A stretch of DNA of 64,000 nucleotides from Polyangiales bacterium (GTDB lineage: Bacteria > Myxococcota_A > Polyangia > Polyangiales > Polyangiaceae), in assembly GCA_038231275.1 (NCBI GenBank), contig JBBRLQ010000012.1, forward strand, positions 32,001-96,000, written 5' to 3'. Position 1 is the stretch's first letter. The number at the start of each line of letters is the position of its first letter. This document shows positions 2,066 through 25,070 of this stretch, piece by piece. The position numbers were made by a program, and so were the translations under genes. A model generated the notes under the pieces. That model was not told where the DNA came from. It did no database searches and saw only the letters and a program-made list of their open reading frames with translations.

Positions 2066-4519
2066 TCAGCGCGGGCACGCCGTGGGGTAGAGGAGGTATT
2101 TGTCGCGCTTCACACGAAACGCCGCGAGCTCCTTGTCCCACGTCGCCTCGATCTCAGGCAGCGTCTTGCCTTGCGCGATCGCGTCGAGCGCCGCGCGGTT
2201 CGCGAGGAGGCGATTCACGTCGTCGAAGTGCCACTTGCCGGCGTGGAGCGTCCGCAAATCGCTGGCCAGCGCGAGGCCGGCGCGTACCGGCTCGAAGCGC
2301 GCGCGATCGGTGACGGTGATGCGAACGCCCGAGCAGCGCTCGCCCTTGTACGGCGCCGCCTGCGGAGTGAAGGTGGTCGCGGCGAACGAGACACCGGGGA
2401 TCCCGCGACCGGTCAGCGCGGCGGCGAGCACAGGCCCGTCGACGAACGGCGCGCCGACGACCTCGAACGGCGTGTCGGTGCCGCGACCGACGGAGAGGTT
2501 CGTCCCCTCGACGAGCCCCACCGCCGGATAGAGGAGCGCCTCGGTGACGCTGCGGAGGTTGGGTGACGGGTTCACCCACGAGAGGCCCGTCGCTTCGAAA
2601 TAGTCGCCGCGCCGCCATCCCTGCGCCGCCACCACGTCGAGCGTCGCGCCGAGGTGGTCCTCCGCATCGAAGAGGAGCGCGAGCTCGCCGATCGTCATCC
2701 CGTGGCGAACGGGCAGCGGGCCGTGGTGCACGAAGCTCTTGGACGCCGCGTCGACGAGCGGACCGGCGACGTCGAGGCCGTCGATCGGATTGGGCCGGTC
2801 GAGGACCATGAAGGCCACGCGCGCGAGGCTGGCCGCCTTCATCGCGCGGCGCAGCGTCGACGGGTACGTGTAGTAGCGCGTGCCGACGTCCTGCACATCG
2901 AAGACGAGGACGTCGAGCCCCTCGAGCGTCTCTGGCGGCGGCGCGAACGTGGCGCCGTAGAGGCTCACGACCGGGAGGCCCGTGGTCGCGTCGCGCCCGT
3001 CGGGGAGGAGCCCCTCCTTGTCGGCGCCGAGGCCGTGCTCCGGCGTGAAGATGCGCACCAGCGTCATGCCCGGCGCGGTCGCGAGGAGATCGATCGTGCG
3101 CGTCCCGTCTTTCGCGCGCCCCGACGCGTTGGTGAGGAGGCCAACCTTCTTCCCGCGCAGGCGCAAAAAACGCTCGGCGCGCAGGACGTCGATCCCCGTC
3201 AGGACGTCGCGCCCGTCGTGCTCGCACGGCGACGGCGTGCGCGCGAGACCTGCGACCTCTGCGGCGATCGTTCCGATTTTCGCCTCGAGCTCGTGGACGG
3301 CGCCGCGCCCGTACGGGTGAACGCGGTTGCTGAGGAAGAGGACGAACAGGTCCGCGTCCGGATCGATCCACAGCGACGTACCGGTGAACCCGCCGTGGCC
3401 GAACGCGTGCCGGGAGAGGCCCTCACCGCGGTGCTTGGTGAACGCGCTCGACATGTCCCAGCCGAGCGCACGGATTCCGCCGGGCACGTCGTGCGGCGCG
3501 AGGAACGCGGCGAAGGTCGACGGTGAGACGACGCGCGCGCCGGAAATCTGGCCTTTCCCGAGCCACGCCTGCGCGAAACGAGACAGGTCGCGCGCGGTGG
3601 AGAAGAGGCCCGCGTGACCCGCGACGCCGCCGAGCGCGTAGGCGCGAGGATCGTGGACCTCGCCCTGCATGAAGCCGGCGTCGGGGCGCATCTCCGTCGG
3701 CGCCGCGCGGGCGCGCATCGGCTCGGGCGGCGTGAACGACGTCTCGCGCATGCCGATCGGCGCGAAGACGTTCTCGGCCGCGAAGGTCGCCACGTCCTTT
3801 CCGCTCACCCGATGGACGAGCTCGGCCAACACCATGAAGCCGACGTCGGAGTAGACGAGGCGCTCGCCGGCGGGCCATCGCGCCGGCGCGTCGAGGATGC
3901 GTCGCCACGCCTCGTCCGGTCCGCGCGCGAAGTCGCTCATCGGGTTGTCGGCGACGAGCCCTCCCACGTGAAGGAGCAGCTGCCGCACGGTGGTGGCCCC
4001 TTTCCCTCCGTGCGCGAACTCGGGAAGGTACGTCGCGACCGGCTCGTCGACGGCGACTTGCCCGCGATCGACGAGCACCATCACGCTGGCCGCCGTCGCG
4101 ATCGGCTTGGTGAGCGACGCGAGATCGAACACGGTGTCGATCTGCATCGGCAGTCGCGCCGGCGCGAGCGCGCGCTGCCCGAAGGCGCGCTTGTAGAGGA
4201 TCTCGTCCTTTCGCCCCACCACGACGACGCAGCCGGGCATCTTGCCCTCGACGAGCGCCGCCTCCGCCGCGGCCGCGATGCCGGCGAAGCGCGGGTCCTC
4301 GACGGAAGGACCCGCGAAGGGATCGGTAGCGGCGCCGTCCGCAGCAAACGCGGTGGCCGCCTCGACGTCGGCGTCGGAAACGAACGCGCCGGCGGCTCCC
4401 GAGGAGACGGGAGCGACCGGCGCGCGGGCATCGGGCGGCGGAGACTCGGCGCAGAACGTCAGGAGCGCGCCGAGGATGATCGGAGCGACGACGAGAGCAG
4501 CGCGAAGCGCGCGGGCCAC
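2066..4519 (-). CDS. Beta-lactamase-family serine hydrolase fused to DUF1343/NamZ exo-beta-N-acetylmuramidase domain
   Basis: ASLTK (SxxK), YSD and HGG motifs, then NamZ-type GLLTN, PEHG, DVQDVGTRYYTY, DRPNP, RHGMTIGELA, PSPN. Confidence 0.88.
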   Translation of the reverse strand: MARALRAALVVAPIILGALLTFCAESPPPDARAPVAPVSSGAAGAFVSDADVEAATAFAADGAATDPFAGPSVEDPRFAGIAAAAEAALVEGKMPGCVVVVGRKDEILYKRAFGQRALAPARLPMQIDTVFDLASLTKPIATAASVMVLVDRGQVAVDEPVATYLPEFAHGGKGATTVRQLLLHVGGLVADNPMSDFARGPDEAWRRILDAPARWPAGERLVYSDVGFMVLAELVHRVSGKDVATFAAENVFAPIGMRETSFTPPEPMRARAAPTEMRPDAGFMQGEVHDPRAYALGGVAGHAGLFSTARDLSRFAQAWLGKGQISGARVVSPSTFAAFLAPHDVPGGIRALGWDMSSAFTKHRGEGLSRHAFGHGGFTGTSLWIDPDADLFVLFLSNRVHPYGRGAVHELEAKIGTIAAEVAGLARTPSPCEHDGRDVLTGIDVLRAERFLRLRGKKVGLLTNASGRAKDGTRTIDLLATAPGMTLVRIFTPEHGLGADKEGLLPDGRDATTGLPVVSLYGATFAPPPETLEGLDVLVFDVQDVGTRYYTYPSTLRRAMKAASLARVAFMVLDRPNPIDGLDVAGPLVDAASKSFVHHGPLPVRHGMTIGELALLFDAEDHLGATLDVVAAQGWRRGDYFEATGLSWVNPSPNLRSVTEALLYPAVGLVEGTNLSVGRGTDTPFEVVGAPFVDGPVLAAALTGRGIPGVSFAATTFTPQAAPYKGERCSGVRITVTDRARFEPVRAGLALASDLRTLHAGKWHFDDVNRLLANRAALDAIAQGKTLPEIEATWDKELAAFRVKRDKYLLYPTACPR

Positions 4520-13256: not shown

Positions 13257-14968
<1,712 letters not shown>

Positions 14969-18554: not shown

Positions 18555-19306
18555 TCGATCTCCGGAAGAAGACCTGCCTCGTCACCGGCGCCTCCGGCGG
18601 CATCGGCGCGGTCATCGCCCGCACGCTGCACGCGCAAGGGGCCACGGTCGTCCTGCATTACCACCAGGGGAAGGCGGCGGCCGACGCGCTCGCCGCCACG
18701 CTCGGCGCGCGCGCCATCTGCGTCGGCGCCGATCTGGGCACTGATGAAGGACCCACCGCGCTGTTCCGCGACGCGCTCGCCAAAGCGGGCGAGATCGACG
18801 TCCTCGTGAACAACGCCGCGACGATGCCAGAGGCGCGCGTCGAAGGGGACCTGGCGTCGTGGCACGCGGGCTGGCGGCAGACGCTGCAGGTGAACCTCGT
18901 CGCGGCCGCCGACTTGTGCCGGGAGGCCATCACGCATTTTCAGAGTCGAAAGGGCGGCATCCTCGTGAACATCGCGAGCCGCGCGGCGTTCCGCGGGGAC
19001 AGCCCCGAGTACATGGCGTACGCGGCGTCGAAGGCCGGGCTCGTCGCGCTCACGCGAAGCATCGCGCGCGGCTTCGCGAAGGACGGCGTGCTCGCCTACG
19101 GCGTCGCGCCTGGCTTCGTCACCGTCGGAATGCCCGCCGAGCACTACCGCGTTCACGGCACCAAGCGCATCGTCGCGGAGATCCCGCTCGGCGAGATCTC
19201 GCCGCCCGAGGACGTCGCCAACGTCGTCGCCTTCCTCGCCTCGGGCCTCGCGCGCCATGCGACGGGCACCACCATCGACGTCAACGGCGCGTCGTACGTC
19301 CGCTGA
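18551..19306 (+). CDS. Short-chain dehydrogenase/reductase
   Basis: TGASGGIG, LVNNA, YAASK. Confidence 0.93.
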   Translation: MIDLRKKTCLVTGASGGIGAVIARTLHAQGATVVLHYHQGKAAADALAATLGARAICVGADLGTDEGPTALFRDALAKAGEIDVLVNNAATMPEARVEGDLASWHAGWRQTLQVNLVAAADLCREAITHFQSRKGGILVNIASRAAFRGDSPEYMAYAASKAGLVALTRSIARGFAKDGVLAYGVAPGFVTVGMPAEHYRVHGTKRIVAEIPLGEISPPEDVANVVAFLASGLARHATGTTIDVNGASYVR

Positions 19307-19346
19307 CGCTCGTTCCTCGATCGTCCGCTGACGCTCGTTCCTCGAT
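19297..19346. repeat. Perfect 25-bp tandem duplication at a convergent gene junction
   Basis: cgtccgctgacgctcgttcctcgat at 19297-19321 and 19322-19346. Confidence 0.9.
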
Positions 19347-20197
19347 CAACGGCACACGACGCTGGGCCACCTTCCTTCGGGCACGCCCGTCGCCATTGCG
19401 TGCGCGCGAGCGAGCACGCCGGCGCACGTGTCGACGCGCGCGGCGATCGTGTAGGGGACGTAGGTGCCGTCCTCCGGCGCGGCGGCGTCGCGCGAAGCTT
19501 TTCCGTGATGGCCTTCGGTCCCTTGCGACACGACGCCCACGATGTCGCCAGTCTCGCGCGACCACACCGGACCGCCCGAGTCGCCGGGGCGCGCGAGGCC
19601 GCTCACCACGATCGAGCCGGCCATCACGCCGGTGGTGACCCCGCTGCGGTACCCACGAAGGAGCGCCCGCTGCGACCAGCCGGCCGCCGGCACCGTCTTC
19701 GATCCGTCGCGCGTCCCGAAACCGGACGCCATCAGATCCTCGTCCTCCCACGGTTCGGCCACGACGCGCGCCGATCGCGTCGGCACCTCGGGCGGGAGGT
19801 TCGTCTCGAGGACGAGCGCCGCGATGTCGCCGCGCGCCGTCTCGTTCCAGCACGGGCATGTCACGACGCCGACGACGCCGACGCGCCCCCACGGCAAATA
19901 GTCTCCGCCGAGCTCGACGCGAATGTCGCCCGGCGCGTGGCGCACCCACTTGTCGCCGTGATCGACGACGCAGTGCTGCGCGGTCAAGACGACTCCCGGC
20001 TCGACGAGCGCGCCCGAGCACGAGCCGCCGTGGGACAGGACGTGGACGATCCAGTCGTCGGGCGTGGCGTCGATGTGCGACAGATCGAGGAGGTGGGTGT
20101 CCGCCTCGAGCCGCAGGCTCGTGGAGAGCGAGAGGCGCGGATAATGGGCGCAGCTTGCGGCGAGGAGCGAGAGCGCGAGGACGACGCGCTTCAGCAT
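19346..20197 (-). CDS. Trypsin-like (S1) serine protease lipoprotein
   Basis: LAASC lipobox; LTAQHC, DIA, GDSGGP catalytic triad. Confidence 0.9.
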   Translation of the reverse strand: MLKRVVLALSLLAASCAHYPRLSLSTSLRLEADTHLLDLSHIDATPDDWIVHVLSHGGSCSGALVEPGVVLTAQHCVVDHGDKWVRHAPGDIRVELGGDYLPWGRVGVVGVVTCPCWNETARGDIAALVLETNLPPEVPTRSARVVAEPWEDEDLMASGFGTRDGSKTVPAAGWSQRALLRGYRSGVTTGVMAGSIVVSGLARPGDSGGPVWSRETGDIVGVVSQGTEGHHGKASRDAAAPEDGTYVPYTIAARVDTCAGVLARAHAMATGVPEGRWPSVVCR

Positions 20198-20354
20198 GCG
20201 CGACGGATTTGCAAGGGTCGCGCCCCCACGCAGCGACGCCAAGCGCGCGAGCTCGCAGGCGACGCCGAGCCCATGCGGGATCGGGCGCCTCTGCTGCGTT
20301 TCGAACGCGAGAGCTTGCGCCCCGGCGCCGGGTGTCGCACATCTTAAGGAGAGA

Positions 20355-20717
20355 ATGTCCGACGAACCGGAGCAGGACAGCGACGTCGTCTACCTCCACA
20401 GCCCGACCGACGACGGCGACGGCGTTCGCGTCGTCCGCGCGCGTCAGGGCAAGGTGGAGATGGGCGAGGTGCGTCCCATCGCCGAGGGCAAGCCGCTCTC
20501 CGGCGAGATCGTCAGTCTTCGTCCGCGCGAGGGCTCGCCTCGGGTATGCGACGTGAAGGTCGAGTACGCGAAGACGGACGACGCAAAGCCCGCGAGCGCC
20601 TCGGGGAGCGCCGCGAAGGGCCCCGCGCAAGTCGCGACGACGACGTACCGCGACAACTGGGAGTCGATCTTCGGAAACGCCGGCCGCCGCTCGAAGAAGG
20701 CCGCCGTCCTGAATTGA
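20355..20717 (+). CDS. Hypothetical protein
   Basis: AAGGAG RBS; typical codon usage; C-terminal QVAT..YRDNWESIFG. Confidence 0.75.
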   Translation: MSDEPEQDSDVVYLHSPTDDGDGVRVVRARQGKVEMGEVRPIAEGKPLSGEIVSLRPREGSPRVCDVKVEYAKTDDAKPASASGSAAKGPAQVATTTYRDNWESIFGNAGRRSKKAAVLN

Positions 20718-20870
20718 TCGCGCGCGTCTGGACAAACTCGTCCGTAGTGCGCACGTTGCGGAGCACTCGAGGCTCTCGGGGCGAAGTCATCTGCGCACCA
20801 AACCGCGCTGCCGCCCGCACCCTCACAACGTTTTTTCGGCCGAAACGCCGAGGCACCTTTCAGACAATTC

Positions 20871-21013
20871 GCATCGGTCCACGGCGACGTGCGGCTTCTC
20901 GTTCGTTCATCCGTTCGAGAAGGCGCACGACCGCCGGAATGAGCCCACGCCTTCGGCGTGACGCGCAGCCGGGGAGCCACGTTTGCTCCACGCGCCGATG
21001 CACCGTTTTCCCG
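20871..21013 (+). ncRNA. Candidate structured RNA (multibranch) in the leader of the Ro60-like operon
   Basis: GCATCGGT(20871-78)/GCCGATGC(20994-21001) helix enclosing hairpins at 20889-20928, 20946-20960 (cUUCGg) and 20973-20989. Confidence 0.4.
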
Positions 21014-21041
21014 CGCCCATCCGGCAAGGCCCCACAAGCAA

Positions 21042-21141
21042 GCTCGGAGATTGTTGGTTCGACTCCAACCGGCTGCACCGCGTTCTCGGACGCTCTCGCA
21101 CGCAGCTGTAGCCTAACGGTAAGGCACCGGCCTCTTAAGCC
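21042..21141 (+). ncRNA. Circularly permuted tRNA-Lys(CUU)-like element; candidate YrlA-type Y RNA
   Basis: T arm GTTGG-TTCGACT-CCAAC (21053-69) and 3' acceptor CGGCTGC (21070-76) come first. A 25-nt linker follows, then 5' acceptor GCAGCTG (21102-08), TA, D arm GCCT-AACGGTA-AGGC and anticodon arm CCGGC-CTCTTAA-GCC. Confidence 0.75.
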
Positions 21142-21321
21142 AAAAGCCATGGCTTTCCCACTCGGGCGTGGGCAATTCTTTTCAAAAGATCGAGATCACC
21201 GCCGCGTGGACGCCAAACGTTCGCGCGCCCGAGCCGCAGGTTAAATCGGGCACACGAACGGCGGCCGCGCGTCCCGCGGCGGGGTTCTCTCAGTTATTCT
21301 TCCCTTCCTTCGGAGGTCCCC

Positions 21322-23094
21322 ATGAACACGAACCAGACGCGCGCGCCCCTTCCGGAGTCGCAGCTCGGGCCTGCCGAGCGGCTGCTCGATCTCGTGCTCA
21401 ACTCGTCGGCGCACCTCTGGCACAACCGGCCGGGGCTCGACGTCCGCGGTGTGTGGCACGCGGCCCGCGGCGCGAAGGTGCGCGGCACCGCCGCGAAGCC
21501 GGGCCTCTTCGTTCCGGCGGCGCGCGGCCTCTACGCGCGCCTCCTCGAGATCTACACGCTCAACGCCGATCTCATGGCGCACTTCGCGTCGTACGCGCTC
21601 CTCGAGACCGAGTGGCGCGATCTGAAGGTCGCGTGCGCCGCGCTCATGCTCGTTCAGGGCAAGAGCGGCCAGCCGATCAAGGAGGACCTTGCCAAGGGCG
21701 CCGCCGTCGCGTTCTACGACGACGACTACCGTGCGATCGGCGAGGCGATGGTCCTCTTCTACGCCAAGAAGAGCACCAAGATGCTCACGCCCAAGGGCGT
21801 GCTCCGCGTCGGGGAGCTCCTCGAGGTTCCGGAGATCGCTGCGCTGAACCGCGCCGCGGGATTCGGCGACGCGACGGGCGGCAAGGCGCCGCTCGGACGC
21901 TGGAAGCGCGCGGCCACCAAGTGGCTCGCCGCGCGCGAGAAGAACCGCGTGATGCTCGAGGGCCTGGTCCGCGCCGGCTACAAGGAGACCATCAAGAAGA
22001 TCGCCCGAAAGGCCGGCTACAAGCCGGAGACGCAGGCCTTCTTCGAGATCCTCGGTTGGAAGCAGAAGCAGGCGGACGGCGGTCACCGCACCGTCGGCCT
22101 CGGCGCCGACCTCAAGCTGGAAAAGCGCGAGCGCTTCGACGGCGTGAGCGAGGCCGAGATCTGCGAGCGCATCGAGCAAGATCGCCTGTCGTACAAGGAC
22201 GTCGTCGGGCGCCTGCCCAAGGACGTCGGGCTCACCCCGGCGATCATGGTCGCGCTCCTGCCGTCGCTCAGCGATCGCGATCTGCGCATGCTCACCCCCA
22301 CCCTCGAGGAGCTCGGGCTCATGACCGAGCCGGAGATCCGCGCGAAGTGGGAGAAGGCCATCCTCTCGTCGACCGACCAGCGCTCGCTCACCACGGCCAA
22401 GAACGTGAAGAGCAAGGCGCTCAAGGAGAAGCTCGAGGAGGCCGCCGACAACGCCGCGAAGAACGCGGTCAAGGCGGCGACCAAGGACAGCGACGTCCGC
22501 GTCATCTTCCTCGTCGACAAGTCGGGGAGCATGACGAACGCCATCGAGCAGTCGAAGGAGGCGCTCTCGCGAATCCTCGCCGGTTTCCCTGGAGAAAAGC
22601 TGCATGTTGCAACCTTCGACACGACCGGGACGGTCCTCCGCCCCAAGGCGGCGTCGCGGGCGGCGGTGCAGCACATGCTCCAGGGCATCACGGCCGGCGG
22701 CGGCACGATGCACGGCGCGGCGGTGCGCGCGCTCCACGAGGCGGGCGTGTCTTTCCCCAAAGAGAGCAAGCTCGTCGTCATCGTGGTCGGAGACGAGGCG
22801 GGCGAGACCGGCGAGCAACTGGCCCACGCCTTCCGCGCCTTCGGCTTCGACGTCGCGGCGCTCGCGCTCATGCTCCCCTCGCAGGCGGGTCGCGGCTACA
22901 CGGTCCGAAACTGCGCGACTGCGCTGGGCATCCCGTTCAGCGAGGTCACGCTCGATCAGTTCGCCGATCCGTATCAGGTGACCCGCGTCCTCACAGCCCT
23001 CCTCGAGGCGCCCAAGATGATCGCGGGCCCCGTGAAGCAGGCGGGCTGGGTGGAGAAGGTCATGAAGACCAAGCTCCTCGAATTGCCCAACTAG
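21322..23094 (+). CDS. vWA-domain protein with basic helical N-terminus; divergent Ro60/TROVE (Rsr)-like
   Basis: GGAGG RBS; MIDAS DKSGS, GGGT, VVGDE; Ro60-like GRWKRAATKWL...IARKAGYKP and ALLPSLS...LEELGL; 590 aa. Confidence 0.7.
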   Translation: MNTNQTRAPLPESQLGPAERLLDLVLNSSAHLWHNRPGLDVRGVWHAARGAKVRGTAAKPGLFVPAARGLYARLLEIYTLNADLMAHFASYALLETEWRDLKVACAALMLVQGKSGQPIKEDLAKGAAVAFYDDDYRAIGEAMVLFYAKKSTKMLTPKGVLRVGELLEVPEIAALNRAAGFGDATGGKAPLGRWKRAATKWLAAREKNRVMLEGLVRAGYKETIKKIARKAGYKPETQAFFEILGWKQKQADGGHRTVGLGADLKLEKRERFDGVSEAEICERIEQDRLSYKDVVGRLPKDVGLTPAIMVALLPSLSDRDLRMLTPTLEELGLMTEPEIRAKWEKAILSSTDQRSLTTAKNVKSKALKEKLEEAADNAAKNAVKAATKDSDVRVIFLVDKSGSMTNAIEQSKEALSRILAGFPGEKLHVATFDTTGTVLRPKAASRAAVQHMLQGITAGGGTMHGAAVRALHEAGVSFPKESKLVVIVVGDEAGETGEQLAHAFRAFGFDVAALALMLPSQAGRGYTVRNCATALGIPFSEVTLDQFADPYQVTRVLTALLEAPKMIAGPVKQAGWVEKVMKTKLLELPN

Positions 23095-23117
23095 AATAGC
23101 GAGGAGAGAGGAACGCT

Positions 23118-24086
23118 TTGGCCGACTACCGAAAGTTCCTCTCCAAGGTCGAGACGAGCGTGCTCCCGTATTTCGGCGGCACGCGCGTCGACACCTCCTC
23201 ACGTCGCTTGCGTCTCCCGAGCGCGCTGGACGCGCCCGGCTGGTACACGTTCGAGATCAAGGGGCGTGAGGCCTTTCCGAAGGATCCGGCGGACGCGCCG
23301 GATCTCTCGGACCTACCGCTCGCGCGCGGTCACGTCGTCGGGCGCTGGCTCGTCGGCGACAACGCGGGCGCGGTGGAGATGGAGCTCTTTTCAGAAGAAG
23401 AGCCTCCGGTGCTCGCGCCATGCCGCGCGCGCGTTTGGTACGGGGGAGAGGTCCTCTTCGAGGGCCTCGACTTCGAGGGCGAAGCCGAGCTATCCGCGCG
23501 CGAAGCGCTGGAGGATGGCCGCTCCCTCGAGGGCATCAAGGGCGTCGGCGCGCCGTTACGGGCCGCGTTCGCCTACGCGGTGCTCGCACGCACGTCGCGC
23601 GAGCTCACCATCCCATTCTCTCCAAAAGAAGTACGAAAGGATCTCCTCACCATCGCTGGAACTGGGCCCGACGGCGCCGCGAGTTCGCTGCGCCGCCTCG
23701 AGCACGAGCGACGCATGTGGCGCGCGCTTCACCCCGAAGAGGCCCTCCTGCGCGGAGAGGCTCCTCCTCCCGTTCGCCACCACGGCCCCCAGCCGACGCT
23801 CGCGAACGCCGAAGAACGCGCCGACGCCGCCCTCGAAGCGGCAGGCGCGCGCCTGCTCGCCGTCCGTCGCCTCGGCGATCGCCAGCTCGAGGTTCGGTAT
23901 CGCTTCATGGACGAGCGCTTCGTCACCGTGTGCGACGCGCTCACGCTGCAGATCCACGACGCCGGCGTCTGCCTCGGTCACGGCGAAGAGCGCGGCGATC
24001 GCCTGCTCACACTCGAGAGCCTTCCGTCCGTCATCAAGGAGGCGATCGACACCGACGTCCTCGTCATCACTCGCGGCTTCGCTTGA
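23118..24086 (+). CDS. Hypothetical protein with HhH-like motif and C-terminal E2 (UBC)-like Cys motif
   Basis: Strong RBS and TTG start; LEGIKGVG; QIHDAGVCL...LTLESLPSVI resembles the E2 G.ICL...LTI..VL pattern. The CDS is confident, the function is inferred. Confidence 0.55.
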   Translation: MADYRKFLSKVETSVLPYFGGTRVDTSSRRLRLPSALDAPGWYTFEIKGREAFPKDPADAPDLSDLPLARGHVVGRWLVGDNAGAVEMELFSEEEPPVLAPCRARVWYGGEVLFEGLDFEGEAELSAREALEDGRSLEGIKGVGAPLRAAFAYAVLARTSRELTIPFSPKEVRKDLLTIAGTGPDGAASSLRRLEHERRMWRALHPEEALLRGEAPPPVRHHGPQPTLANAEERADAALEAAGARLLAVRRLGDRQLEVRYRFMDERFVTVCDALTLQIHDAGVCLGHGEERGDRLLTLESLPSVIKEAIDTDVLVITRGFA

Positions 24087-24166
24087 AAGGAAGGACTCGC
24101 GCGTGAACAAATCGGCGGCCAGCTCGTCGAAGCAGAAACGTTCTCACCGAAGAAAGGCGGCATCCC

Positions 24167-24409
24167 ATGGCGATTCTGAACATCACGTACAACGGTCTGT
24201 CGGCGGACTACCCGCTCGACATGAACTACGACCTGTCGGACGCCGACGTCCGGCGTATCGCGCTCGAGGTCGTGCGTTCGGGCGGCGTCGGCGGCCTCCA
24301 GATCGCGAACCTCGACGAGCGCGCCTTCGCGGCGCACGTGATCGACCGGTTCCAGGGCCAGGACGGTGCCCCGCGCATCTACCTGCGTCCCAAGGTCCCG
24401 TTCGGTTGA
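24167..24409 (+). CDS. Ubiquitin-like (beta-grasp) protein
   Basis: 80 aa with a strand-strand-helix-strand-strand pattern, ends RIYLRPKVPFG; directly upstream of a ThiF/E1 gene. Confidence 0.7.
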   Translation: MAILNITYNGLSADYPLDMNYDLSDADVRRIALEVVRSGGVGGLQIANLDERAFAAHVIDRFQGQDGAPRIYLRPKVPFG

Positions 24410-24412
24410 ATT

Positions 24413-24480
24413 TCGTTTGGAACGAGTCTTTTCAGTGGAATCTACTGAAAGGATTCGTTCGAACGATTCCATTGAAAGGA
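24413..24480 (+). promoter_or_regulatory. Long AT-rich intergenic hairpin with an alternative RBS-sequestering fold
   Basis: 24420-38 pairs with 24442-60 (19 bp including G-U). Alternatively 24429-42 pairs with 24465-78, covering the GAAAGGA RBS of the E1 gene. Confidence 0.6.
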
Positions 24481-24482
24481 GC

Positions 24483-25070
24483 ATGCGGGTGCGGATCGTG
24501 TTCTGCGGCGTGGGCGCGCTCGGCTCGACGGCGGCGGTCCTGTGCCGAAACCTGCCTTCGACGCTGGCGTTCGTCGACTTCGATCGTGTCGAGGCGAAGA
24601 ACCTCGCGGCGCAGGCGTACGTCAAGCCGTCCATCGGGAAGAACAAGGCCGATGCGCTGAAGCTCCAGCTGCTGAATTTCTACGGCATCAAGGCGGAGGC
24701 GTTCGGCGTCCGGCTGGGCGCCGAGAACGTCGCGACGCTGCTCGGCGCCGCGGATCTGATCGTCGACGCGTTCGACAACCAGGCGAGCCGGCTCGTCCTG
24801 TCCACCTATGCGCGTGCGGCGAGAAGGGCGCTCGTGCACGGCGCGCTCTCGGGCGACGGGACGTTCGGCTTGGTCCGTTGGGACGAGCGCTTCGTGCCCG
24901 ACGCCGAGGACGAGGCGGGCCAGGCCACGTGCGAGGGCGGCGAGCACCTGCCGCTCATCGGTCTGCTTGGCGCGGCGCTCGCGCGCGCGATCCAGGATTT
25001 CGTGAAGAGCGGCGCGCGGCGCGACTCGATGGTGAGCCTCGCGGCGGTGACGCCGACCGCGTCCACGTGA
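24483..25070 (+). CDS. ThiF/E1-family adenylyltransferase
   Basis: CGVGALGS, DFDRVEAKNL..Q, GKNKA, VDAFDN..SR, ATCE (putative catalytic Cys); no CxxC zinc motifs. Confidence 0.9.
   Translation: MRVRIVFCGVGALGSTAAVLCRNLPSTLAFVDFDRVEAKNLAAQAYVKPSIGKNKADALKLQLLNFYGIKAEAFGVRLGAENVATLLGAADLIVDAFDNQASRLVLSTYARAARRALVHGALSGDGTFGLVRWDERFVPDAEDEAGQATCEGGEHLPLIGLLGAALARAIQDFVKSGARRDSMVSLAAVTPTAST

Follow-up and report, generated by a model that had tools for sequence, protein, structure and literature searches.

Y RNAs are small RNAs that tether the ring protein Ro60 to effectors or gate it in RNA quality control. The bacterial particles of this kind have so far been found from TROVE-annotated genes, Chen et al. 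2014 having started from TROVE-annotated genomes (PMC4201824). In the Ro60/Rsr proteins (PDB 1yvp, 2nvo, 9kop and 9l5y) a helical N-terminal domain precedes a VWA domain that contains a DxSxS motif, and their genes adjoin small RNAs that resemble transfer RNA (tRNA). In the bacterial family YrlA (RF02553; PMC4201824; 10.1101/312249) the tRNA-like part runs in the order T arm, loop-closed acceptor, D arm. The two ends of the RNA pair into a long stem that is proposed as the binding site of the ring protein. The RNA genes are neighbours of the ring-protein gene and share its strand, and many are arrayed together with shorter units lacking the tRNA domain (YrlB-like). In cells, YrlA associates with Ro60/Rsr, and TruB and DusA modify it. 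According to Wang et al. 2018 (10.1101/312249), YrlA lacks an anticodon loop and is proposed to originate from a tRNA dimer. Here we describe an element at 21042-21141 (+) of a 64,000-nucleotide stretch of the genome of a Polyangiales bacterium. The whole stretch is called the window, it corresponds to G000:C12:32001-96000 on the + strand (G000 being the host genome), and coordinates are positions in it unless a contig is named. We consider it likely that the element belongs to a tRNA mimic of the Y-RNA type whose partner is a divergent Ro60-like protein encoded just downstream; the Rfam YrlA and Pfam TROVE models miss both. Most probably it represents a not yet catalogued branch of the known Ro/Y-RNA partnership rather than a working tRNA.

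The initial annotation had described permuted tRNA pieces in the order T arm, closed acceptor, D arm and CUCUUAA, and all of them lie at the positions given for them. The acceptor strands pair over 7 bp including one U-G pair, as had been noted, and the linker hairpin is present with 5 bp in a constrained fold. This flagged stretch is the core of a ~170-nucleotide RNA (~21010-21183) that includes a basal stem and a U-rich tail. Its parts are listed here, with counts that refer to the alignments of 33 and 53 family units described below.

21010-21018 (+): basal stem P1, 5' strand CCCGCGCCC, pairing with 21164-21172
21019-21025 (+): internal-loop segment AUCCGGC, at the site of the family consensus GGCCGA(A/C)
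21026-21031 (+): basal stem P2, 5' strand AAGGCC, pairing with GGCUUU at 21151-21156
21032-21040 (+): conserved single-stranded motif CCACAAGCA (family consensus CUACACGCA), its columns invariant in the 33-unit alignment
21042-21047 (+): GCTCGG, 3' strand of the anticodon-type stem, pairing with 21127-21131 with one bulged U
21048-21052 (+): AGATT (AGAUU), 5-nucleotide variable loop
21053-21069 (+): T arm GTTGG/TTCGACT/CCAAC, with the T loop GGTTC[GA]ANTCC in 53/53 units and 3/5 stem pairs covarying
21070-21076 (+): acceptor 3' strand CGGCTGC, followed by ACC to 21079
21077-21101 (+): 25-nucleotide linker that begins ACC and holds the small hairpin
21102-21108 (+): acceptor 5' strand GCAGCTG, with 7/7 acceptor pairs changed on both sides and 96-98% of cells pairing
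21109-21110 (+): TA (UA) connector
21111-21125 (+): D arm GCCT/AACGGTA/AGGC, with 3/4 D-stem pairs covarying
21126 (+): A26
21127-21131 (+): CCGGC, 5' strand of the anticodon-type stem
21132-21138 (+): anticodon-type heptamer CTCTTAA (CUCUUAA)
21139-21141 (+): GCC, giving a local anticodon stem of just 3/5 pairs
21151-21172 (+): 3' side of the basal stem, with GGCUUU (P2, 21151-21156), CC and conserved CACUCGGGCG running into the P1 3' strand GGGCGUGGG (21164-21172)
21173-21183 (+): tail CAAUUCUUUUC, part of a terminator-like call that comprises 21157-21172 plus the tail

Each unit of the family is bracketed by two near-invariant motifs, CUACACGCA after the 5' stem strand and CACUCGGGCG after the matching 3' strand. 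The sequence CACTCGGGCG at 21159-21168, near-invariant across the family, has its sole match in the window at this site. Runs of at least three T fall within the 11-nucleotide tail of 43/53 units, and the region had two terminator-like calls where 1.1 would be expected; on these sequence features, transcription probably ends by intrinsic termination downstream of the basal stem.

The family was assembled from 80 loci fetched around relatives of the 590-residue protein encoded downstream of the element. Elements of this kind, differing in the sequences of their helices, are present upstream of these relatives. Structure was tested on a structure-blind MAFFT alignment of 33 units over 35 pairs (basal, T, acceptor and D stems), the controls being pairing partners slid by 1-3 columns and 500 column shuffles. 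Pairing was found in 89.3% of 1148 cells as against 35-46% with slid partners, and 21/35 pairs had changes on both sides. None of the 500 shuffles matched the observed values on four of five measures, and one of the 500 did so on the fifth, further standard pair types. The covarying pairs were distributed over the acceptor (7/7), the T arm (3/5), the D arm (3/4) and the basal stem (8/19). Six core pairs of P1 were maintained in both the 33-unit and the 53-unit alignment, with GC pairs replaced by GU or AU, and several P2 pairs had changed on both sides in both alignments. The covariance model built from the 33-unit alignment, called R1, gave the window element 118.1 bits on the + strand versus 0.7 bits on the - strand. 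The permuted structure is far beyond chance because the R1 score is strand specific to this degree and the helices covary in relatives, and the compensatory covariation that the initial annotation had suggested looking for is thus present. The 53 strongest R1 matches gave 89.4% pairing and 23/35 pairs changed on both sides, in a model-based alignment that leans towards the model.

These compensatory changes keep all helices, including a basal stem foreign to tRNA, and the element is 87% identical in the sister genome, the only other one in which a DNA similarity search found it (2/61 related genomes). The family, moreover, is kept across several Myxococcota families. A functionless decayed remnant of two tandem tRNA genes therefore has a negligible chance of being the explanation, although true tandem-tRNA junctions do give partial R1 matches (G000:C12:228253-228318, within a tRNA array), which fits the tRNA-dimer origin proposed for YrlA.

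Across the 80 loci R1 gave 80 matches at E<=0.01. At E<=1e-5, at least one unit was present in 42/80 Myxococcota loci, always on the strand of the protein gene and mostly within ~1 kb upstream of it. A sequence-only nhmmer profile found nothing in the 38 loci without R1 matches, and an R1 scan of 19000-25000 with filters off found no second unit in that part of the window. Two other screens, a T-loop regular expression (29/80 loci) and a motif-pairing search (72 units, some of them false and within coding sequence, e.g. L051:3360-3583), were superseded by R1.

The strongest single result is the co-occurrence of RNA and protein among genomes. The protein gene is present in 4/61 related genomes and in 8/301 genomes sampled across the phylum. 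At E<=1e-8 R1 matched, among the 61 related genomes, only G000, G001, G034 and G049, exactly the four with the protein; these belong to three genera of two families, and since related genomes share ancestry, the counts cannot be treated as independent trials. In G034 the RNA lies on a different contig from the protein gene, and two genomes with canonical TROVE (G024 and G052) gave no R1 match. Five further genomes lack a unit within 4 kb of the gene, and all five (G350-G354) hold full-length units elsewhere, between housekeeping genes such as guaA, an M1 peptidase gene and a ChaN-type gene. Because full-length units lie away from the protein gene in these five genomes, the RNA is a free-standing gene, and its presence tracks that of the protein.

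This tracking therefore argues against a mere leader. That the element is a cis-acting 5' untranslated region regulating the downstream VWA gene, and not a separate RNA, would agree with its position on the same strand 140 nucleotides upstream of the start codon, with the failure to detect a separate promoter, and with a second conserved hairpin (21214-21264) between element and gene. However, full-length units far from the gene or on other contigs (G034, G350-G354), tandem arrays of up to six units and the T run after the basal stem in 43/53 units make such a leader improbable. The hairpin at 21214-21264 (+), in the gap between the RNA and the start codon, consists of CGUUCG-CGCGCCCGA...UCGGGCACA-CGAACG and has been kept by the sister genome (at 3775-3815 of L008). 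The GCGCCCGAG stem is similar to the 5' strand of the Y-type basal stem, and the hairpin could be a leader structure in the Ro-like mRNA. The same sister locus has CCGAC-type repeats between RNA and gene (L008 3850-3960), as well as an extra short unit without a tRNA domain ~290 nucleotides upstream of its long unit (3267-3328) that has no counterpart in the window.

The probable partner of the RNA is the product of the adjacent gene.

21322-23094 (+): 590-residue protein with a helical N-terminal domain of ~385 residues and a C-terminal VWA domain, 140 nucleotides downstream of the RNA

Pfam recognised only the VWA domain at residues ~390-560, and residues 1-385 gave no family match. Relatives of ~70% identity, annotated "vWA domain-containing protein", occur in Archangium, Hyalangium, Labilithrix and other Myxococcota, and 1231 relatives at E<=0.001 were found among 8000 candidates scored. 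Residues 1-390 gave 197 matches at E<=0.001 among 1.84 billion representatives, the distant ones having 26-50% identity. D399, S401 and S403 of the DxSxS motif are invariant in the family. A first structure model from 20 close relatives was poor (pLDDT 70.7), and a model from 43 diverse sequences reached pLDDT 86.8 and pTM 0.76. With the latter, the first 12 Foldseek matches in the PDB were all TROVE/Ro60 entries (9kop, 1yvp, 2i91, 1yvr, 9nfa, 9nep, 9nf8, 9l5y, 2nvo and 9nen, two of them with two chains each), with E values of 8.6e-9 to 5.7e-7 over 487-612 columns and TM scores by target of 0.42-0.53. VWA-only entries ranked behind all 12. VIA-align superimposed the model on Ro60 chains with Z 13.9-15.0 over 419-438 residues (root mean square deviation 5.0-5.6 A), at 12-16% identity in the structural alignments. 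A scan of 48,161 representative chains that did not use Foldseek placed just three whole-length matches in its top 50, the Ro60 chains 1yvp_A, 2nvo_A and 9l5y_B (Z 12.9-14.5, 421-435 residues, root mean square deviation 5.2-5.4). In its modelled structure the protein thus resembles Ro60/Rsr in architecture, a helical ring being joined to a VWA domain. A sequence/profile search against PDB sequences returned VWA proteins only, and PHROGs gave one weak match (phrog_850, "RNA-binding protein", E 2.4e-4).

Several results weigh against the Ro/Y-RNA interpretation. On the RNA side, a whole-genome search with Rfam YrlA (RF02553, gathering threshold 69 bits) gave a sole sub-threshold match of 36.7 bits that lies elsewhere (C2:377419-377508), and a local Rfam scan of 20800-21350 had no Y-RNA family or YrlA match at E<=10. 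YrlA was likewise absent at the gathering threshold from six family loci and from 13 canonical TROVE loci. The unconstrained fold of 21020-21195 is not stabler than shuffled sequences (z 0.97; 167/200 shuffles fold at least as well), no sigma-70-like promoter was detected at the element, and the window copy reads AUCCGGC where a GNCGA motif would be expected from the family; the case from a single sequence alone would be weak. On the protein side, Pfam TROVE (PF05731) and vWA_Ro60 (PF25045) are absent from the matches of the 590-residue protein at E<=10, and TROVE matched none of 20 diverse family members at E<=0.1. The canonical protein of locus L118, a positive control, matched both models, and the host genome as a whole had no TROVE match. 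Alignment by hhalign to eight canonical myxobacterial TROVE proteins was collinear over 255 columns with an E value of 4e-4, which speaks for the interpretation, and had a low probability of 34.9%, which speaks against it; with a shallow alignment the values were E 0.027 and 1.8%. The Z values for Ro60 were tied with those of VWA-only matches of ~165 residues, the N-terminal domain adding little to Z. Finally, as to distribution, 38/80 loci have no unit within 4 kb, the units of G350 and G351 lie between housekeeping genes, and in G352, a Labilithrix metagenome-assembled genome, a large tRNA array holds strong R1 units at 4-5 kb upstream of a canonical gene with TROVE and vWA_Ro60 matches. This genome also encodes the new ring protein. 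The array (L118, G352:C22:84000-94000) comprises ~25 tRNA-model matches on one strand around the canonical gene and an HNH endonuclease gene, with R1-type units of 85.9, 84.8 and 57.3 bits interspersed.

The initial annotation had offered a Y RNA of YrlA topology as one reading, and this stands as to anatomy, covariation, a Ro60-like neighbour and genome co-occurrence; by score, however, the RNA is not a member of Rfam YrlA. The new family shares with YrlA the arm order, the long stem formed by the RNA ends, the position beside a ring-protein gene on its strand, often in arrays with shorter units lacking the tRNA domain, and, in many members, a GNCGA-type motif on the 5' strand. Unlike YrlA, it fails RF02553 and has its own invariant basal-stem sequences CUACACGCA and CACUCGGGCG, standard and permuted arm orders coexist on one stem, and the partner gene 140 nucleotides away is Ro60-like by structure and not by Pfam TROVE. 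The protein differs from Ro60/Rsr in the same way, having no TROVE or vWA_Ro60 match, and its N-terminal family is small. By their descriptions in PMC4201824, Deinococcus radiodurans Yrn1 and Salmonella YrlB offer a further likeness in that Y RNAs of one locus differ in having a tRNA-like part or not and in its form, just as the present family includes short units lacking the tRNA domain and units with the other arm order.

The motif comparison concerns the proposed contact with the ring protein. Published Ro60-binding motifs follow GNCGAAN0-1G, which is proposed to contact Rsr and resembles the GGUCCGA contacted by Xenopus Ro60 (PMC4201824). The family consensus between P1 and P2 on the 5' strand, GGCCGA(A/C)G, resembles the published motifs and occupies the same place; G.CGAA.?G is found in 15/53 units and G.CGA in 32/53. 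RNAs beside the canonical TROVE gene of another myxobacterium (L093) contain GGGCCGACGAAG or GGGCCGAUGUAG, with the motif inside the anticodon arm of a standard-order tRNA-like RNA. At this locus three ~125-nucleotide RNAs (3250-3903, - strand; Rfam tRNA 45-48 bits) lie upstream of the TROVE gene, each with an open 7-bp acceptor ending ACCA, D and T arms and a long anticodon-arm insertion with GGGCCGA(C/U)G. They look like a non-permuted Y-RNA design, and an HNH-like open reading frame lies between them and the Ro60 gene.

Found across several Myxococcota families, the units take four forms. In form (a) the RNA is permuted and the anticodon-type stem forms between the 5' and 3' flanks as in YrlA, with a perfect 5 bp in 12/53 units. 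Form (b) is permuted with a closed anticodon-type hairpin, with 5/5 pairs in 19 units and 4/5 in 14 (33/53 closed). Form (c) keeps the basal stem but has its arms in standard tRNA order (L064, L079, L043 and L087:3073), and form (d) comprises short units without a tRNA part (e.g. L064:3569-3613 and L008:3267-3328). The form (c) unit at L087 3073-3171, one of six units arrayed there within ~1 kb, the largest array found, is a near-complete standard-order tRNA (Rfam tRNA 61.2 bits at 3084-3156) lying between CUACACGCA and CACUCGGACA on a Y-type basal stem. The window unit is intermediate between (a) and (b), with a flank stem GCUCGG/CCGGC of five pairs and one bulged U and a local hairpin of 3/5 pairs. 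The folding energies for the open and the closed anticodon-type stem are -46.6 versus -48.5 kcal/mol and do not decide between the two.

The initial annotation was right that a retained anticodon-type loop is unusual for a YrlA RNA, and this holds across the family: YrlA is described as having no anticodon loop, whereas 33/53 units have the closed hairpin. The 33 closed loops keep a tRNA signature (Y32 in 32/33, U33 in 28/33 and R37 in 30/33), with 23 different triplets at positions 34-36. A decoy specific for tRNA-Lys anticodon nucleases, which had also been suggested, does not agree with this variety, as CUU is common only to the same-genus locus L008 and two unrelated units. ARAGORN called a tRNA in 42/49 re-permuted units with scattered identities, that of the window unit being Lys(CUU).

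The last result, from a re-permuted sequence such as the initial annotation had proposed to scan, together with a linker that begins ACC and a 5' half nearest to tRNA-Lys(CUU), might point to a functional permuted tRNA-Lys(CUU) that is circularised and processed for decoding. This was among the readings first offered, but we regard it as very improbable. The host genome has 86 tRNA genes, including three canonical tRNA-Lys(CUU) and two tRNA-Lys(UUU) genes. The triplets differ among orthologues and paralogues, the local anticodon stem has only 3/5 pairs, and the strongest conservation is in the non-tRNA basal stem. A local scan (E<=10) with the Rfam tRNA model, which had been proposed together with the YrlA search above, gave 19.9 bits on the 5' half, short of the threshold of 29. 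The permuted tRNA genes of red algae and an archaeon, as described in 10.1101/312249, are alike in that the acceptor is initially closed and an anticodon-type stem forms from the 5' and 3' flanks. They are unlike the present family, which has no conserved anticodon and no need for a tRNA, and whose flanks form a conserved stem of protein-binding type and not a splicing motif. On the native window ARAGORN called nothing at the element and no tmRNA (transfer-messenger RNA) with a tag peptide, and thus nothing that would make the element a two-piece (permuted) tmRNA.

As to ancestry, the 5' half is closest to the genomic tRNA-Lys(CUU), with a local score of 21 of 37 possible, and the 3' half is akin to no particular tRNA, a pattern of sequence similarity that would fit descent from a tRNA dimer. 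The tRNA-Lys(CUU) gene nearest the 5' half is one of 20 tRNA genes in 2.4 kb (G000:C12:226768-229169) on the contig of the window, outside the window itself.

We propose that 21010-21183 (+) encodes a stand-alone non-coding RNA of the YrlA type, which would be transcribed as a molecule of ~170 nucleotides. Its ends would pair into the long basal stem (P1, internal loop, P2), flanked by CUACACGCA/CACUCGGGCG and followed by the U run. On top of this stem would stand a permuted tRNA look-alike with variable loop, T arm, closed acceptor, D arm and anticodon-type stem-loop. The basal stem could serve as the docking site for the ring protein encoded 140 nucleotides downstream, leaving the tRNA-like head to be presented to tRNA-recognising enzymes or an effector. 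In this way the RNA might act on the ring protein as Y RNAs act on Ro60 in RNA quality control, by tethering it to the effector or by gating it.

The genes that follow the Ro-like gene bear on a different interpretation.

23118-24086 (+): 322-residue protein directly downstream of the Ro-like gene, with a tblastn match in 70/80 loci
24107/24167-24409 (+): small open reading frame of 80-100 residues, without annotation, in 28/80 loci
24366-25070 (+): ThiF/E1-like adenylyltransferase (Pfam ThiF 9.6e-20), in 27/80 loci

The 322-residue protein had no match in Pfam, NCBIfam, PADLOC, PHROGs, the ESM Atlas or PDB sequences. The ThiF-like protein gave NCBIfam ThiF-type matches under the cut-offs and weak PADLOC E1-E2 matches. 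Together the three proteins might form a ubiquitin-like conjugation module associated with the particle. Neither RtcB nor RtcA was seen in the neighbourhood.

With these neighbours, the RNA and protein might instead constitute a new tRNA-centred sensing, decoy or conflict system and not a Ro/Y-RNA quality-control particle. Its members would be the arrays of mimics with varied loops, the ring plus VWA protein, the 322-residue protein and, in some loci, the small protein and the ThiF/E1-like enzyme. Such a system would account for the closed hairpins with a tRNA-like loop signature and 23 triplets, the published YrlA having no anticodon loop. It would also suit the linkage of the 322-residue frame (70/80 loci) and of the ThiF-like gene with its weak E1-E2 matches (27/80), the patchy occurrence in 4/61 relatives and 8/301 genomes of the phylum, and the failure of the TROVE sequence models. 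However, the ring protein, the 322-residue protein and the small frame have no PADLOC match and the ThiF linkage is partial. Furthermore, Ro60 proteins are the only whole-length structural relatives, and the RNA is laid out as in known Ro/Y-RNA loci, with a protein-binding stem plus tRNA mimic, an arrangement in arrays and the same strand as the gene. A conflict system thus seems unlikely. A related proposal, doubtful though worth stating, is that RNA and protein are no divergent Ro/Y-RNA pair but a separate and patchy Myxococcota ribonucleoprotein. Its arrayed mimics, complete and with anticodon-type loops that all differ, would share one type of protein-binding stem and serve to bait or sense enzymes that target tRNA, such as anticodon nucleases or tRNA modifiers. 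Its output would pass through the 322-residue partner and, in some loci, the small protein and the E1-like enzyme.

The Ro/Y-RNA partnership remains the reading that we prefer. Both partners escape the standard models here and yet share the design of the particles found from TROVE-annotated genes (PMC4201824), with strict co-occurrence. If it is correct, the Ro/Y-RNA world is wider than TROVE annotation suggests, and a function could be assigned to several hundred myxobacterial proteins whose sole label is "VWA domain-containing". Carriers that are cultured and genetically tractable occur in Archangium, Hyalangium, Myxococcus and Pyxidicoccus, with records from Archangium gephyra, Hyalangium versicolor, Myxococcus dinghuensis and Pyxidicoccus caerfyrddinensis, and could reveal the purpose of the tRNA-like head in a Y RNA. 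An anticodon-type arm that is retained, mixed arm orders on one stem and the arrays would provide a natural series for the transition from tRNA dimer to Y RNA. Sorangium cellulosum is listed in Table S1 of Chen et al. (PMC4201824). Myxococcus, Stigmatella, Haliangium, Archangium and Corallococcus were not found in that supplement, one file of which was unreadable. In a full-text literature search no paper tied Myxococcota to Ro60 or Y RNA within the text available, save for single mentions in a jumbo-phage review.

Elsewhere in the window, the sole ARAGORN call is a tRNA-Ser(CGA) at 2433-2519. Rfam at gathering thresholds gave nothing at the element and one unrelated match at 13433-13690 (-) to 5_ureB_sRNA (72.6 bits, E 7.6e-17), which probably reflects conserved urease coding sequence on the opposite strand and not a small RNA gene. 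The host genome has a second permuted tRNA-like element outside the window, at G000:C2:377419-377525 (L089 ~1500-1610). No Ro-like gene is adjacent to it, and the neighbouring open reading frame has no relation to the ring protein. The element has no R1 basal stem and gave a partial R1 match of 46 bits, the sub-threshold Rfam YrlA score of 36.7 bits noted above and no ARAGORN tRNA. It consists of a T arm, CGGCGCC-ACC, a linker, GGCGCCG-TA, a D arm and a closed hairpin with a UUCGUAA loop.

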